From an uncultured Holophagales bacterium (lineage in GTDB: Bacteria > Acidobacteriota > Thermoanaerobaculia > Multivoradales > UBA5704): DNA of 64,000 bases. Shown here piece by piece: positions 5,921-53,519 of this stretch. Made by a program: the position numbers and the translations under genes. Numbering within the stretch: the stretch's first letter is position 1; each line of letters opens with the position of its first letter. The notes under the pieces are model-generated. The model saw only the letters and a list, made by a program, of their open reading frames with translations. It did not search any database and had not been told where the DNA came from. The stretch covers positions 192,001-256,000 of the forward strand of contig CAWJGT010000009.1 of the NCBI GenBank assembly GCA_963842525.1, in the 5' to 3' direction.

Positions 5921-6128
5921 GTGGCCGGGGAATAGGTGCTATTTCTTCATATGGCGCCGGAACCACTCGATCGCCTGCGCGTCGCGTTCCGCCAGCCAGC
6001 CGGATAGGTGGTGATCGGCTCCCTGTAATCGGGCCAGATCGTTACGGCCGCCTGGGCGAACCTCCCGGGGGGCAGGTGCCAGCCACTTATTCGGCGCGGG
6101 TCTACCCGATTCAATCCCAGCGCCGGGC

Positions 6129-48482: not shown

Positions 48483-48714
48483 CTTCGTCTCCTTTCTGGA
48501 GAAAACTCCGGCATCGGGATGATGCCGGAATGTCTGTATCGCGTTCGCTTCTCTCGACTCCCGTTCGTCTTCATGAGCGTGGTAGACTGTTCATATGGAC
48601 TTTGCAAGATCAACTGATGCGGATCATGCACCATAGTGTCCATGGTGTCAACCCCCGTCTCCCATCCTGTCGACCGTATTGGGATAGAATTTCTCCAAGT
48701 CCTGGCAATTGAAG

Positions 48715-49190
48715 ATGACGAAGATCCCGAGGAGCCTGGAGGAGGCGCTGCGCGACGGACGGGTGATCCCGTTCGTGGGGGCCGGCGTGTCCATGGCCGT
48801 GGAGCGCGCCGGGGGTGGACGGATCTTCCCGAGCTGTAAGCAGCTCCTGCTGGACGGCGCGGCGCGCCTGGAGCGGGAGGGCAGGAACGCCAACGTGGTG
48901 CGCGGCCTCGTCGAAGACGACCCGCCGGACTACCTGCAGGCGGCCAAGAAGCTACGCGACAAGCTCGGTCCTCTGTGGGGCGCTTTCTTGAAAGATGCGA
49001 TCGACGTCTCCCGCGCGGAGGTCTCCGACGGGAGCCTTGCGCTCGCGCAAGCGGTATGGCGCCTCGGCAGCCGCCTCGTCATCACCACCAACTACGACCG
49101 GGTCCTCCGGTGGGCCTGTCCCGATGCGTGGCGCGACGACCTCAAGAGCTGGGACGTCAACGCCCCTGCCGAGCAGGCCGAGTACCTCGT
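48715..49190 (+). pseudogene. Truncated SIR2-like (SIR2_2) domain protein
   Basis: VIPFVGAGVS and VITTNYD motifs; the HG motif and C-terminus are missing. Confidence 0.75.
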
Positions 49191-49475
49191 CCGGCTCGTC
49201 AACCTTCGGCAGAGGACGTGGCACCCAGATGAGCTGCGACCGCGCCTGGCCGCGCGCCAGCCGCACCTGTTCCTGGGGATAGGTGGCCTCCGGCTTGCCG
49301 TCGACCTCCCGGCCGGCGTAGCCGTCGAGCAGGTGGACCGAGAGCCGCGCCCGCTCAGACCGTTGCCGCAGGAGCCCCAGGCGGTGCTCCTCGACGGCCA
49401 TCCCAAGGACGAGAACGTGCTCGGCGAGGTCGAATGTTCGCCTGGCACCTATCTGGGCACGGTGGACGGCCTTCC

Positions 49476-49587
49476 CCTGGGACCGCGGGCGTCCCGCCCG
49501 CGCGGATTCCCAGCGACCGGCGAGTTGGCGTTAATCCTGGACGACCCAAGCCCAAGGAGGGTGGGCGGACGCCCGCGGTCCCAGGGA
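49476..49587. repeat. REPIN-like inverted pair
   Basis: CCCTGGGACCGCGGGCGTCC ... GGACGCCCGCGGTCCCAGGG; a related unit lies at about 10337-10363. Confidence 0.7.
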
Positions 49588-49730
49588 GAACCGACGACAA
49601 GGAGCGGCGAGGGTTGCCAGAGGTGCCGGAATGTTCCGGAATGTTCGGCTGATGATCCTCTAGAAGGCTCCTCCCTTCTGACGAGCCGCGATAGGCTCGT
49701 CGGGAGACCAATCCCTGAAAGGAGGAGCGC

Positions 49731-50747
49731 ATGGGACTTTACTGTGGAATCGACTTGCATTCAACCAACAGCTATCTCGTGGTGATGAACGAGCAACTGC
49801 AATCGGTCCTCAGCAGGCGGGTGGCCAACCGTCTGGAGGCGGTCCTGGAATCCCTGGAGCCCTTCCGAGAGCAGATCCAGGCGACCGCCGTGGAGTCCAC
49901 CTTCAACTGGTACTGGTTGGTGGATGGCCTCATGGAGGCCGGCTACGAGGTTCGCTTGGTCAACACCTCCGCTGTCCGCCAGTACGAGGGCTTGAAGTAC
50001 GTCGATGACCGCCATGACGCGCGGTGGTTGGCGCGCCTGCTCCACCTCAACATTCTGCCCACCGGCCACATCTATCCGAAAAAGGAGCGCGCGGTGCGAG
50101 ATCTACTGCGCCGCCGAACCTTTCTGGTGCGACAGCGCACCGCCAGCTTGCTGAGCGTCAAAAATGTTTTCTCTCGCTACACCGGGGTTCAAGTTTCCCT
50201 CAACGAGCTCAAGCGCATGACGGCCGAGCAGGTCGAGGAGCAGTTCACGGACCCACACATCGCCTTGACGATCACGAGCAGCCTGGCGATCGCCCGCACC
50301 CTGAAAGACCAAATCTCTGGCATCGAGAAAGCTGTCCTCAAACAAGCCAGGCTGAGGCCCGAATTCGAGCTGCTCGAGAGCATTCCCGGCATCGGTCTGA
50401 CCCTTGCCCTGACCATCATGTACGAGACGGGATCCATCGCTCGCTTTGCCGAGGCCGGCCACTTCTCCTCCTACTGCCGCTGTGTACCCAGCCAGCACCT
50501 CAGCAACGGCAAGGTCAAGGGCTCGGGTAACGTGCGCAATGGCAACCCGTACCTGTCCTGGGCGTTCACAGAGGCCTCTCACTTCGCCATCCGGTTCGAG
50601 CCTCTCGCCAAGCGTCTCTACGAGCGCAAGCGGGCCAGGACCAATGAGTTGGTCGCCCTGCGGACGATCTCGAACAAGCTGACTCGTGCCGCGTTCTACA
50701 TCCTGCGCGACCAGGTGCCGTTCCGGTCGGCGCAAGCTTTCGGTTGA
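49731..50747 (+). CDS. IS110 family DEDD recombinase/transposase
   Basis: YCGIDLH, AVEST, DDRHDA, SIPGIG and SYCRCVP...SNGK motifs. Confidence 0.93.
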   Translation: MGLYCGIDLHSTNSYLVVMNEQLQSVLSRRVANRLEAVLESLEPFREQIQATAVESTFNWYWLVDGLMEAGYEVRLVNTSAVRQYEGLKYVDDRHDARWLARLLHLNILPTGHIYPKKERAVRDLLRRRTFLVRQRTASLLSVKNVFSRYTGVQVSLNELKRMTAEQVEEQFTDPHIALTITSSLAIARTLKDQISGIEKAVLKQARLRPEFELLESIPGIGLTLALTIMYETGSIARFAEAGHFSSYCRCVPSQHLSNGKVKGSGNVRNGNPYLSWAFTEASHFAIRFEPLAKRLYERKRARTNELVALRTISNKLTRAAFYILRDQVPFRSAQAFG

Positions 50748-51190
50748 TTCAGGTGGGGGACAGGGAGCCTGCAATAGGTGCTGGGCGAAAGAACCCTCCG
50801 TGGCTGATTGGCCTCTGTCTTCCACCGTTTTTGGCTCTTTTGTCGGAGATGCGCCCAGGTCGTGAGCCCGAATGTGCTGGCACCTCTGAACCCTCCTTCG
50901 GGGGGAGGAGGTAGCCTTATTGGTTGTCCTGAACCTTGGACACGAACCTGGAACCGAAGATTTTCTGGGGGCACGCAAACCGTGCCAGGGGCGGGTCGGA
51001 GCCGTCACCGGCTCCGACCCGCCTTGATCCCGATGGGTGGCTGGTGCGGATCTCCGCACCTGAAGCACAGCGAGACTACGGGCGCGCAAACCCGACACGG
51101 GAGCACATCTTGCCGGAACGAGCCGTTCTTGAAACGAACACTCCCGGGAGGGAGACGTGTGGGTCGTTGACAAGAGCCTTCTAATGGGTG
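50748..51190 (+). ncRNA. Putative bridge/seek RNA
   Basis: Hairpin GGTGGGGGACAG...CTGTCTTCCACC with internal-loop segments AATAGGTGC and GTGGCTG matching the target; ATGGGTG matches the donor end. Confidence 0.7.
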
Positions 51191-51506
51191 TGCTGGCACC
51201 TCTGAACCCTCCTTCGGGGGGAGGAGGTAGCCTTATTGGTTGTCCTGAACCTTGGACACGAACCTGGAACCGAAGATTTTCTGGGGGCACGCAAACCGTG
51301 CCAGGGGCGGGTCGGAGCCGTCACCGGCTCCGACCCGCCTTGATCCCGATGGGTGGCTGGTGCGGATCTCCGCACCTGAAGCACAGCGAGACTACGGGCG
51401 CGCAAACCCGACACGGGAGCACATCTTGCCGGAACGAGCCGTTCTTGAAACGAACACTCCCGGGAGGGAGACGTGTGGGTCGTTGACAAGAGCCTTCTAA
51501 TGGGTG
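50875..51506. repeat. 316-bp tandem duplication (50875-51190, 51191-51506)
   Basis: Apparently identical copies, each preceded by TG and ending in ATGGGTG. Confidence 0.93.
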
Positions 51507-51517
51507 GCACCTATTCT

Positions 51518-51633
51518 CCTCGGCAGCCGCCTCGTCATCACCACCAACTATGACCAGGCCCTCAGATGGGCCTGTCCCGAAGCGGGACGCGACGACCTCA
51601 AGATCTGGGACGTCAACGCCCCTGCCGAGCAGG
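51518..51633 (+). pseudogene. Diverged 116-bp SIR2 fragment
   Basis: LGSRLVITTNYDQALRWACP; paralog of 49062-49177. Confidence 0.8.
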
Positions 51634-51701
51634 AATGTTCGGCAGGCACCTATTCGGGCAGAAGGAGCGCCGGAAGCGTGGCCGAGCATAAACCAATTGA
51701 T

Positions 51702-53519
51702 ATGCCAACCGCGAAACGAATGACCGAGGTCTCGAACGCGATCGTCGTCGCGTGCACGCCGCGAGCGGCCCACGAGGCGCTCCAACTCATGCAATCCCTG
51801 CGTGACCTCGGATACGCATTGGCGGAGGCTATCATATCCGTAGATTCCGATGCCAGCGCGTTCGATTCGATCGCCCGGAACAAGCTCATCATCGTTTGTA
51901 TTGCTGCCGACTTTGAAGCTCACGACGCGTTTCTCAACAGAATCATTGATGCGAAGAGGCCCGAGCAGCAACCAGTCTTAGTGCTGCGCGATATTTACCT
52001 TGAGCAACTGCCACCTCGCTTCCTAATTCACTGCCTCAGTAGCTACTTGGAGTGGTCGACACCGACGAGCGTCTCAGCCAATGCAGTTCCGATTCTTGAG
52101 GAGTTCGTTTCGGCATCGGGTAATCATCCTCTCGTCTCGTATGCTAAAGAGCAAGCCGCAATGCCTCTTATCGAGGTCGAGTTCACTCTCAGGCAGGTGG
52201 CCCAGGGCGACTTGAATGAACTCGGAAAGCTTGGACTAGATTTTGTTTTTGAGGGTTACCGAGATCATGACTCTCGTGAGGTCAGGGAAGCAGCGCACAG
52301 AATCCAGGAGTACGCGAAGCAACACGGAGTTGACCATCAGTTCGATCTTACCCGTGACCGGAGGTTTGCCGGAGATAAATCCCTCGCCCGTGGCAAATAT
52401 TATACCGTGGCCGAAGATCAATCTGGATCTGATCGAGGAGTGCTCGTCGCGGAGCTAATGGCCTACTACAATCCCCTGCACTCCGGGATCATCGAGATCT
52501 ACGATCTGACCGTTCCGGCCTACAAGCAGGTCTTCCAGCGTAGGTATGGGCTCGAAATTTGTCGACGGGCGGGTGTCAGCTTGCCCGAGGATGGTCTCGT
52601 GGTCGTGTATTTTCTGCCAAGCTGCAAAGCCCACCCGTTCGGGCACCTGGTCAGCAGCAACCAGACTCTGGCCTTCATTACGATACCGGTGACGGTGACG
52701 ACGCAGAGAATACCGGGGGTCCTGGACCTTCGGCAGCCCGCAGTCGCCGATTGGTTCGCAAAGCACTTTTCGTCTTTGGTCTGGAACCGGGATGGGGTCA
52801 ATGTGCCGGTGTTTCCGAATAAGGAGCCAGTTAGTAACTTCCGGGAGATCCTGCCGTCTCTCTTGACACAGCAGTTAGGGGGAGGCGGGTTCACGAAAGT
52901 TGTGGGTTGGTGGCTCCGAAGACACGGTGTGCGCGGGCTTGTGTTCCCGTCCGCACGTTATGACAGCAGCTTGAAGGCTTCAAACGGGAAGTGCGTGTCG
53001 TTCAGCGGCTGGAATTTGGTTGACTATCGGGGTTCTTCCCTGGGCGACGTCGATCTACGGATAGACGTAAGCTCAACGTGGCCGGACATCATTGAGAATT
53101 CTCCCGACGGGTTGCTGGATGCGCTAATGGGGAAGCAACCCGTTCGATACACAGACGTAGACCTGAAGTATACCAGGACAGGGGAAGCGGCTGGGAGCTG
53201 GGAGGTAACTGGATTGGTTGCCCGCCGGCTCGCCACCACACAAGTCGCCAAAGTGTTCTCGCAACTGGCTGGGCTGGAGATCTCAGACGAGAGCAAGAGA
53301 GTGCTGGGTAGCTGGTTGCTTTCGATGCAGCCGAATCAGGCCCGGACAGCACACGCAGACGTTTTGATCTGGGCATTGCTCGGCGTCGAGCAGGCGAAGG
53401 CGGATATCCTCGCCTGGAAGTCTGCGGCAGAGTCAGGCAAACATCACGAGCTGGCAGGCGCTTTTGACGATGTTGTTAAGAACTCTCGAGTGTTTCCAAG
53501 CCAATCTGGATATGAATAG
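51702..53519 (+). CDS. Lower-GC protein with a degenerate TIR-like N-terminus and RES-like domain (start uncertain)
   Basis: RF...YY...E, VLDLR and GVRGLVFPSAR resemble RES motifs; the N-terminal alpha/beta pattern resembles TIR. Confidence 0.55.
   Translation: MPTAKRMTEVSNAIVVACTPRAAHEALQLMQSLRDLGYALAEAIISVDSDASAFDSIARNKLIIVCIAADFEAHDAFLNRIIDAKRPEQQPVLVLRDIYLEQLPPRFLIHCLSSYLEWSTPTSVSANAVPILEEFVSASGNHPLVSYAKEQAAMPLIEVEFTLRQVAQGDLNELGKLGLDFVFEGYRDHDSREVREAAHRIQEYAKQHGVDHQFDLTRDRRFAGDKSLARGKYYTVAEDQSGSDRGVLVAELMAYYNPLHSGIIEIYDLTVPAYKQVFQRRYGLEICRRAGVSLPEDGLVVVYFLPSCKAHPFGHLVSSNQTLAFITIPVTVTTQRIPGVLDLRQPAVADWFAKHFSSLVWNRDGVNVPVFPNKEPVSNFREILPSLLTQQLGGGGFTKVVGWWLRRHGVRGLVFPSARYDSSLKASNGKCVSFSGWNLVDYRGSSLGDVDLRIDVSSTWPDIIENSPDGLLDALMGKQPVRYTDVDLKYTRTGEAAGSWEVTGLVARRLATTQVAKVFSQLAGLEISDESKRVLGSWLLSMQPNQARTAHADVLIWALLGVEQAKADILAWKSAAESGKHHELAGAFDDVVKNSRVFPSQSGYE

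Follow-up and report, generated by a model that had tools for sequence, protein, structure and literature searches.

Which RNA directs an insertion sequence to its target, and can the guides in that RNA be read from the element and the DNA around it? The question arises at a locus in the genome of an uncultured Holophagales bacterium (assembly GCA_963842525.1), where a stretch of 64,000 nt (contig CAWJGT010000009.1, positions 192,001 to 256,000; hereafter the window) contains an element at 49652-51506 on the plus strand, counting one copy of its core dinucleotide. RNA-guided elements of the IS1111/IS110 type, whose guide molecules are called seekRNA or bridge RNA, were described in 2024 (Siddiquee et al., PMC11187229; Durrant et al., PMC11208160; both cited here from the accessible parts of their text). 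The element is very probably an IS110-family, IS1111-type insertion sequence (IS) with a recombinase guided by an RNA that is encoded downstream of its gene and carries a target loop and a donor loop. A preliminary description of this DNA, made from its letters, had proposed the same identity and the same position for the guide RNA; Pfam and NCBIfam matches, the layout of the element and covariation among relatives agree with it, and every sequence string that it named can be located in the window. The span that it gave, 49639-51516, encloses the right element with boundaries that are replaced by those above.

The left flank, GAATGTTCGGC, ends in TG at 49650-49651, and a second TG at 51505-51506 precedes the right target arm, GCACCTATTC (51507-51516). 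These are the core, or crossover, dinucleotides, and all four full copies in the genome (9.95 Mb, 67.8% G+C, 34 contigs) read ..TTCGGC TG before the left end and GCAC.. beyond the right core. Joining the flanks of the element at a single TG does yield a site, as had been claimed: it recurs uninterrupted at 49432 with 3 mismatches and at 51633 with 1 mismatch, where the chance expectation in the window is 0.00. Because these two intact paralogous sites exist, the boundaries of the element are fixed. The left end (49652-49730, 79 bp including the 5' untranslated region) starts with ATGATCC and contains, 9 nt inside, the 10-bp subterminal inverted repeat TAGAAGGCTC (49661-49670); its complement, GAGCCTTCTA, lies 5 nt inside the right end and occurs at both 51174-51183 and 51490-51499. 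The repeat length falls within the 7-17 bp given for IS1111 elements, and a short left end combined with a 3' non-coding region of about 440 bp per unit is the layout of that group. Three further full copies, 1539-1540 bp long, are 94.7-96.6% identical to the window copy, and the genome also holds partial copies (one 5' part, one 3' part and short right-end remnants).

The recombinase gene (49731-50747, plus strand) encodes 338 amino acids in a frame that is intact in three of the four full copies, including the one in the window. The protein matches DEDD_Tnp_IS110 (PF01548, E 2e-14) and Transposase_20 (PF02371, E 7e-18), that is, an N-terminal DEDD/RuvC-like domain and a C-terminal domain, and it scores 186 bits with the NCBIfam model NF033542, 'IS110 family RNA-guided transposase', for which the cut-off is 140. 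Its relatives in the PDB are the ISCro4 and IS621 transposases. A serine in the C-terminal domain aligns with the serine of ISCro4 and is followed by asparagine, giving the motif S-N-G, which is also present in eight of the ten homologues displayed. Around it, residues ~246-262 (window 50466-50516) read YCRCV-x4/5-S-N-G-K-K-K-G throughout the clade; IS110/IS1111 proteins are described with P-x4-S/T-G.

Homologues were collected by a recombinase search of a sequence collection, which returned at least 160 loci at 49-84% identity; among the matches listed, the closest sit in metagenome-assembled genomes of Acidobacteriota. With the window copy counted, both ends could be mapped by script in 102 of 161 loci from the subterminal repeat (6-12 bp in these homologues) and the conserved right end. 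Ahead of the left end stands TG in nearly all of the 102 rows and CG in four of them; two of the CG rows were among the four loci later dropped as mis-parsed, and the remaining 98 loci hold 91 distinct RNA regions. The entire 3' region is collinear across the mapped relatives and ends with the subterminal repeat, ATGGG and then TG or CG. A long RNA region (~440 nt in the window copy when a duplication described below is discounted, 385-633 nt across the 102 end-mapped loci) is therefore a property of the clade and not a peculiarity of the window copy. Guides were matched with flanks in 75 loci (69 distinct RNAs), 23 of the 98 being omitted for short flanks or an unparsed middle loop (loop 2, discussed below), and loop segments were taken from alignment columns. 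For significance, the guide-flank pairings were shuffled 2000 times, and the shuffling was repeated within clusters of at least 60% or at least 70% recombinase identity, the latter comprising 45 loci in 7 clusters.

The first hairpin after the stop codon (50752-50826, plus strand), the equivalent of a short seekRNA, is the target loop. It folds at -38 kcal/mol (z = -2.2) on a scaffold of GAGCC, a variable strand, TGG, a small hairpin, CC(A), a second variable strand running to TG, and ATTGG. The right flank appears in reverse complement in the 5' strand, and the left flank plus core is repeated in the 3' strand; in the window, the 5' guide is AATAGGTGC (50773-50781) and the 3' guide is GTGGC with the core TG (50800-50806), followed by the 'handshake' bases AT (50807-50808). 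The match to the top strand lies 5' of the match to the bottom strand, which is the order given for IS1111 elements in the accessible text of PMC11187229. The preliminary description had picked out both segments and had suggested checking whether they covary with insertion sites. They do: the mean contiguous match is 5.89 between the 5' guide and its own right flank (1.78 in shuffles) and 3.60 between the 3' guide and its own left flank (0.77 in shuffles), and neither value was reached in any of the 2000 shuffles. For both strands the outcome was the same with shuffling confined to the clusters of at least 70% identity, and an earlier set of 41 loci agreed. Pairs that switched jointly include GGAGC/GCTCC, AAGTGC/GCACTT and GGTGT/ACACC. 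In 85 of 98 loci the two bases after the target-loop core are those with which the left end starts (AT in 68, AG in 14, AA in 3). It is the covariation in related elements, and not the window copy alone, that shows the guide matches to exceed chance.

Reading GTGGCTG as left arm plus core, as had been done, is correct for a site variant at 6074-6092 on the minus strand, which has a variant left arm with GTGGCTG and then GCACCT; the window copy's own left arm is TCGGCTG, and there the match shrinks to GGCTG. About eight positions in the target hairpin differ between the window copy and its three sisters, four of them within the guide strands. The guides of the window copy fit a palindrome-like consensus site, AATAAGTGGC-TG-GCACCTATT, which is present unoccupied in the genome. 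In one soil data set this consensus site seems to be occupied by a near-identical element, the two ends coming from separate contigs.

Some 200 nt below the target loop, a multi-branch loop (50952-51059, plus strand) is the donor loop. RNAalifold closes it with ACCG/UGGU and places two hairpins within, and the closing hairpin is at 51045-51059. The 5' guide, GAAGATTTT (50956-50964), forms a discontinuous duplex with the left end that leaves positions 2 and 7 unpaired; the left ends ATAATC, ATGATC, AGAATC and ATACGC accompany the guides GATT, GATT, GA(C/T)T and TCGT, respectively, and the cognate score of 5.66 (shuffles 5.11, standard deviation 0.06) was reached in none of the 2000 shuffles. 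The 3' guide, ATGGGTG at 51033-51039 (strand 51031-51041), repeats the right end plus core, as had been recognized from its match to the donor right end, and continues into the handshake bases GC (51040-51041); the same string recurs in the window at 51184, 51349 and 51500. Guide and right end are identical in 75 of 94 loci. The rare right ends ATGAGTG and ATGTGCG accompany the RNA guides ATGAGTG and ATGTGTG, with one exception, and in 80 of 90 loci the right flank starts with the same two bases that follow the donor core (AC 40, GC 24, TC 10, CC 6). In a further 9 of 94 loci the right end is ATGGGCG and the guide ATGGGTG, so that the right-end core is CG while the donor guide keeps TG (L009, L030, L036, L048, L059, L060, L128, L144 and L158, with others showing a CG core); such cores may be a trace of insertion into CG-core sites.

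The ends also carry what would become a promoter. TTGACA at 51483-51488 is followed, after 17 nt, by the core G, and ATGAT of the left end would complete the hexamer GATGAT; the proposal that circularization creates TTGACA-N17-GATGAT is therefore upheld at the level of the sequence. TTGAC occurs within the last 40 nt of the right end in 88 of 98 loci, at 17 nt from the hexamer that starts with the core G in 58 loci and at 18 nt in 19. The junction hexamer is most often GATAAT (41 loci), and GATGAT is found in 17 loci including the window. A circle-junction promoter is predicted from this, with a function suggested by other members of the family.

By analogy with IS621, ISEc11 and relatives, the element would excise as a circle, and joining of the ends would set TTGACA 17 nt from GATGAT; the resulting promoter would drive both the recombinase gene and the 3' non-coding region, and RNA from the latter would guide the DEDD recombinase. 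Covariation shows the pairing itself: the 5' strand of the target loop pairs with the top strand of the right arm, and its 3' strand with the bottom strand of the left arm and the TG core; in the donor loop, the 5' strand pairs discontinuously with the left end, and the 3' strand matches the right end and core. The two handshake bases on each 3' strand match the partner DNA after exchange.

Several observations weigh against this account. Instead of the S-G of the family motif, the clade carries S-N-G, and pairwise comparison of the recombinase with an ISEc11-family transposase gives only ~26% identity; placement inside IS1111 proper is therefore tentative. Rfam 15, searched with 49300-51900 at E values up to 10, returned chance-level matches (best E 2.6) and no bridge-RNA family. 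Among public sequencing runs, none listed for the element is recorded as RNA, and no run contains more than 0.30 of the sampled words. Finally, the 3' guide of the window copy fits its own left arm over GGC and the core only, and the guide of the sister copies fits better; therefore the RNA that placed the window copy may differ from the one it now carries.

As in the IS1111 seekRNA elements ISEc11, ISPa11, ISKpn4 and ISPst6, to the extent that they are described in the accessible text of PMC11187229, we find a recombinase of 330-350 amino acids, subterminal inverted repeats, a long non-coding region past the gene, a hairpin RNA of ~80 nt in which the top-strand match precedes the bottom-strand match, a junction promoter, and site-specific insertion with no duplication beyond the core. 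Unlike in those elements, the recombinase is only ~26% identical to the ISEc11-family protein and has S-N-G in place of S-G or T-G; the target loop directly follows the stop codon here and lies ~110 nt further on in an ISEc11 copy; and the non-coding region of ~440 nt contains a further loop that resembles the target loop. The ISEc11 non-coding region, with its recombinase at ~26% identity, is too far removed for an alignment. Like the IS621 bridge RNA as presented in the accessible text of PMC11208160, the RNA has two guide loops that each read both strands around a shared core dinucleotide, together with handshake dinucleotides (Hiraizumi et al. 2026, PMC13626964, from the accessible text) and one donor guide with discontinuous pairing. 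Unlike in IS621, the RNA is encoded at the right end rather than the left, top- and bottom-strand guides come in the opposite order, the subterminal repeats are long, and a third loop stands between the target and donor loops. The accessible text of Durrant et al. (PMC11208160) mentions that many IS1111 RNAs place the donor guides in a multi-loop, and this is the form seen here. From its anatomy and covariation, then, the element is of the IS1111 type with a seekRNA/bridge RNA and sits on a branch far from those members that have been tested; apart from the conserved third loop and a duplication that looks self-inflicted, nothing about it is unusual.

The third loop, loop 2, is an internal loop at 50855-50951 (plus strand). 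Its basal stem, CCAGGTCGTG/CACGAACCTGG, has compensatory changes in 8 of 10 pairs predicted by RNAalifold, and it has the scaffold of the target loop with ~10 extra bases between the core-like TG and TTGG. The variable strands are CGAATGTGC (50869-50877) on the 5' side and TTATTGGTTG (50917-50926) on the 3' side. The preliminary description had counted a GAnCC-variable-CTGG scaffold at about 50765, 50864, 50951 and 51026 and had suspected extra loops. All four occurrences are real, and they represent the 5' strands of three loops plus the donor 3' strand, which makes one extra loop and not two. The second scaffold (50864-50880) was also considered as the donor loop and rejected, as its strands match neither end of the element.

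Loop 2 follows the flanks more coarsely than the target loop does. In its 5' strand, the last 3-6 bases correspond to the beginning of the right flank (GTGC/GCAC, GGGT/ACCC, GGAC/G+TCC), and its 3' strand often repeats the core-adjacent bases of the left arm. Against their own flanks, the 5' strand scores 3.43 (1.67 shuffled) and the 3' strand 1.51 (0.66 shuffled), values reached in 0 of 2000 shuffles, and both strands also beat shuffles inside the clusters of at least 60% identity. Inside the clusters of at least 70% identity, 203 and 159 of 2000 shuffles reach the observed match for the 5' strand, and 423 of 2000 for the 3' strand, which becomes marginal (57 of 2000) when wobble pairs are allowed. 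Close relatives that have switched targets have kept loop 2 unchanged (L006, L009 and L011; L001 versus L004; L007), and the left arm is read further by the target loop in 53 of 75 loci, by loop 2 in 9 and equally by both in 13. From the covariation and stem results, therefore, loop 2 is conserved, structured and linked to the class of target, and is not reprogrammed at each target switch. Had the extra scaffold been unconserved, the suspicion of extra loops would have fallen; it is conserved with a compensatory stem, and only its tracking of the flanks is unconvincing at high identity.

What loop 2 does can be read in more than one way, and of the readings considered the best placed, at a little under even odds, is that it serves a structural role or binds protein, having perhaps arisen long ago as a copy of the target loop, with strands that do not pair with DNA and a likeness to the flanks inherited by lineage. 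The lack of convincing target tracking among close relatives favours this, as does the clade-wide consensus of the 3' strand, approximately A-C-A-A-G-N-N-C-T-G, which resembles the commonest left arms rather than the arm of the element in question. It is harder to reconcile with the several independent lineages in which unrelated arms are matched in loop 2, and with close pairs in which loop 2 and target change jointly (L010 versus L028, L081 versus L006, L095 versus L098).

Loop 2 is also where the window copy has been rearranged. A tandem duplication that the preliminary description had overlooked repeats 50873-51188 exactly at 51189-51504, with a period of 316 bp, on the plus strand. The first unit takes in loop 2 from its internal TG onwards (its 3' part) and continues through the donor loop and the distal non-coding region, with TTGACA at 51167-51172 and the right subterminal repeat at 51174-51183, to the right end ATGGG; the second unit repeats these, with TTGACA at 51483-51488, the subterminal repeat at 51490-51499 and ATGGG at 51500-51504. 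The other three full copies have a single unit, so that the duplication and the base changes in the target guides set the window copy apart from them. The boundaries read CCCGAA-TG-TGCTGG, AATGGG-TG-TGCTGG and AATGGG-TG-GCACC; all three fall at TG, one end of the block being exactly the crossover point of the element and the other a TG within the 5' strand of loop 2. The duplication was probably made by the element's own recombinase at that internal TG, judging from where its boundaries lie: exchange of the right-end junction with the loop-2 TG would give the observed product, and so would self-insertion followed by homologous deletion.

The duplication could instead stem from a 2-bp microhomology, through replication slippage or unequal exchange, or from faulty assembly, and we regard such an origin as the less probable one, at roughly one chance in three. 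The boundaries share TG and nothing more, the internal site resembles neither the target nor the donor guides in the crossover register (a point that counts against a recombinase origin), and the contigs of four public runs include none that crosses the duplication junction, or the circle junction, nor was a spanning read found. On the other side, one boundary coincides, within the 2-bp ambiguity, with the right-end crossover point; another genomic fragment of the element breaks 8-10 bp away in the same loop-2 strand; and ISPpu9 forms alternative circles from internal end-like boxes, according to the accessible text of PMC12288879. There, Pares-Guillen et al. (2025) describe a recombinase that uses alternative end-like boxes within or beside the element, which yields circular forms and chromosomal arrangements made up of only part of the element, an RNA gene downstream of the recombinase gene among them. 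The window copy is comparable in that its rearrangement involves its own RNA gene, and it differs in showing a static tandem duplication, with no circles observed and an internal boundary that is not a recognizable copy of an end. As another crossover point, the TG in the target-like string GC-TG-GCACC of loop 2 was considered and ruled out, since the junction it predicts lacks 5 nt that are actually present.

Less favoured for loop 2 is the possibility that it is a working second DNA-reading loop, pairing with 3-6 target bases on each side of the core; we hold this doubtful. It would act as a target loop of low specificity, joined covalently to the donor loop while hairpin 1 is freed as a short seekRNA, or else as a reader of the flanks in excision. 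The scaffold shared with the target loop (GAGCC, variable strand, TGG, hairpin, CC, variable strand to TG, TTGG) and the own-flank matches above all 2000 shuffles and within the clusters of at least 60% identity speak for it, as do separate lineages whose left arms GTAC, ATTG, ATCG, CGCG and GACT have the same bases in loop 2, and the loci L081 and L153, where the match to the left arm extends further in loop 2 than in the target loop. The results at 70% identity and above, the target-switched relatives that kept loop 2, and the predominance of the target loop in reading the left arm speak against it. A bolder version, equally tentative, would make the guide RNA of the clade a three-loop bridge RNA, in which loop 2 is a second target-like loop, enclosed in one domain with the donor loop and pairing with the few crossover-adjacent bases on either side, and in which the recombinase also cuts inside the loop-2 DNA. 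If this were true, loop 2 would be the physical bridge between donor and target or a flank recognizer for excision, and the highly specific first hairpin a separable specificity module; cutting within loop-2 DNA would account for the duplication in the window copy and also for a truncation at another genomic locus.

A literature search found no third loop, or second target-binding loop, in IS1111 RNAs in the accessible text, and the papers retrieved on IS1111 structure do not address the point; the supplementary folds and structures of PMC11187229 and PMC11208160 may already depict one. In an ISEc11 copy on an E. coli plasmid (L161), an 11-nt string at 1765-1775 is identical to the left flank of that copy; it lies in the 3' non-coding region, ~35 nt past the stop codon and ahead of the target hairpin that was published, a hint that additional target-like segments exist in other IS1111 RNAs too.

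The preliminary description had the guide aimed at a genomic repeat family. Target-like sites do exist, and their enrichment is weak. With at most 1 mismatch, the target 14-mer has 10 sites in the genome, where 12 shuffled patterns average 3.7 and reach at most 15; when 2 mismatches are allowed there are 57 sites and a shuffled mean of 69; and a 13-mer variant of the target has 4 exact copies (mean 0.17). A count of 67 genomic target-like sites was rejected as a sign of repeat enrichment, being at chance level, and by the counts above the genome-wide target family is small.

Locally, a target-like unit of ~27 nt (GAATGTTCGNC-NG-GCACCTATYY..GGCA) occurs at 49432-49458, at 49629-49651 plus 51507-51520, and at 51633-51660, all within 400 bp when the IS is removed; the element splits one of the three. 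A 186-bp stretch between the first two units contains a 20-bp perfect inverted repeat (49475-49494/49567-49586), and it may be a small non-autonomous element because its ends resemble each other inversely. Around these units are repeated fragments of a gene that carries an ITTNYD motif. The open reading frames on either side of the IS (48709-49785 and 51504-53519) share LGSRLVITTNYD..LRWACP..RDDLK.WDVNAPAEQ, a segment that we take to be a SIR2-like motif and that has no Pfam match at E 0.001; the flanking gene seems to be partly duplicated around the ~27-nt units.

Elsewhere in the genome, solo right-end remnants are found at C3:1291377-1291495 (119 bp), C3:337231-337296 (66 bp) and C1:628237 (~12 bp), all of which retain the adjoining GCACCT.. 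right arm. One IS copy is split over contigs, with its 5' part at C9:824534-824758 and its 3' part at C3:1636199-1637215; both parts abut the ends of another repeated element (ends reading ..GGCGACAATTAGAACTGCGGG), and the 3' part breaks inside loop 2, after GCTGGCA. At the copy at C9 1078375-1079925, the right flank consists of four 13-nt units (GCACTCATTTCGG-like) in series, beyond which lies a second, unoccupied target-like site.

RNA-guided IS110/IS1111 recombinases are under development as programmable genome-writing tools and, to our knowledge, mechanistic work has been almost entirely on the two-loop IS621 type. The clade described here supplies ~90 natural sets of guide, target and donor, in which target guides, donor guides and handshake bases are directly readable, and its conserved extra loop raises the question of whether IS1111-type complexes have a third module that reads DNA or binds protein. 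For the host, the outcome is a genome with four full and several broken copies of the IS in short palindrome-like repeats, one of which, the copy in the window, has had its RNA gene rearranged.

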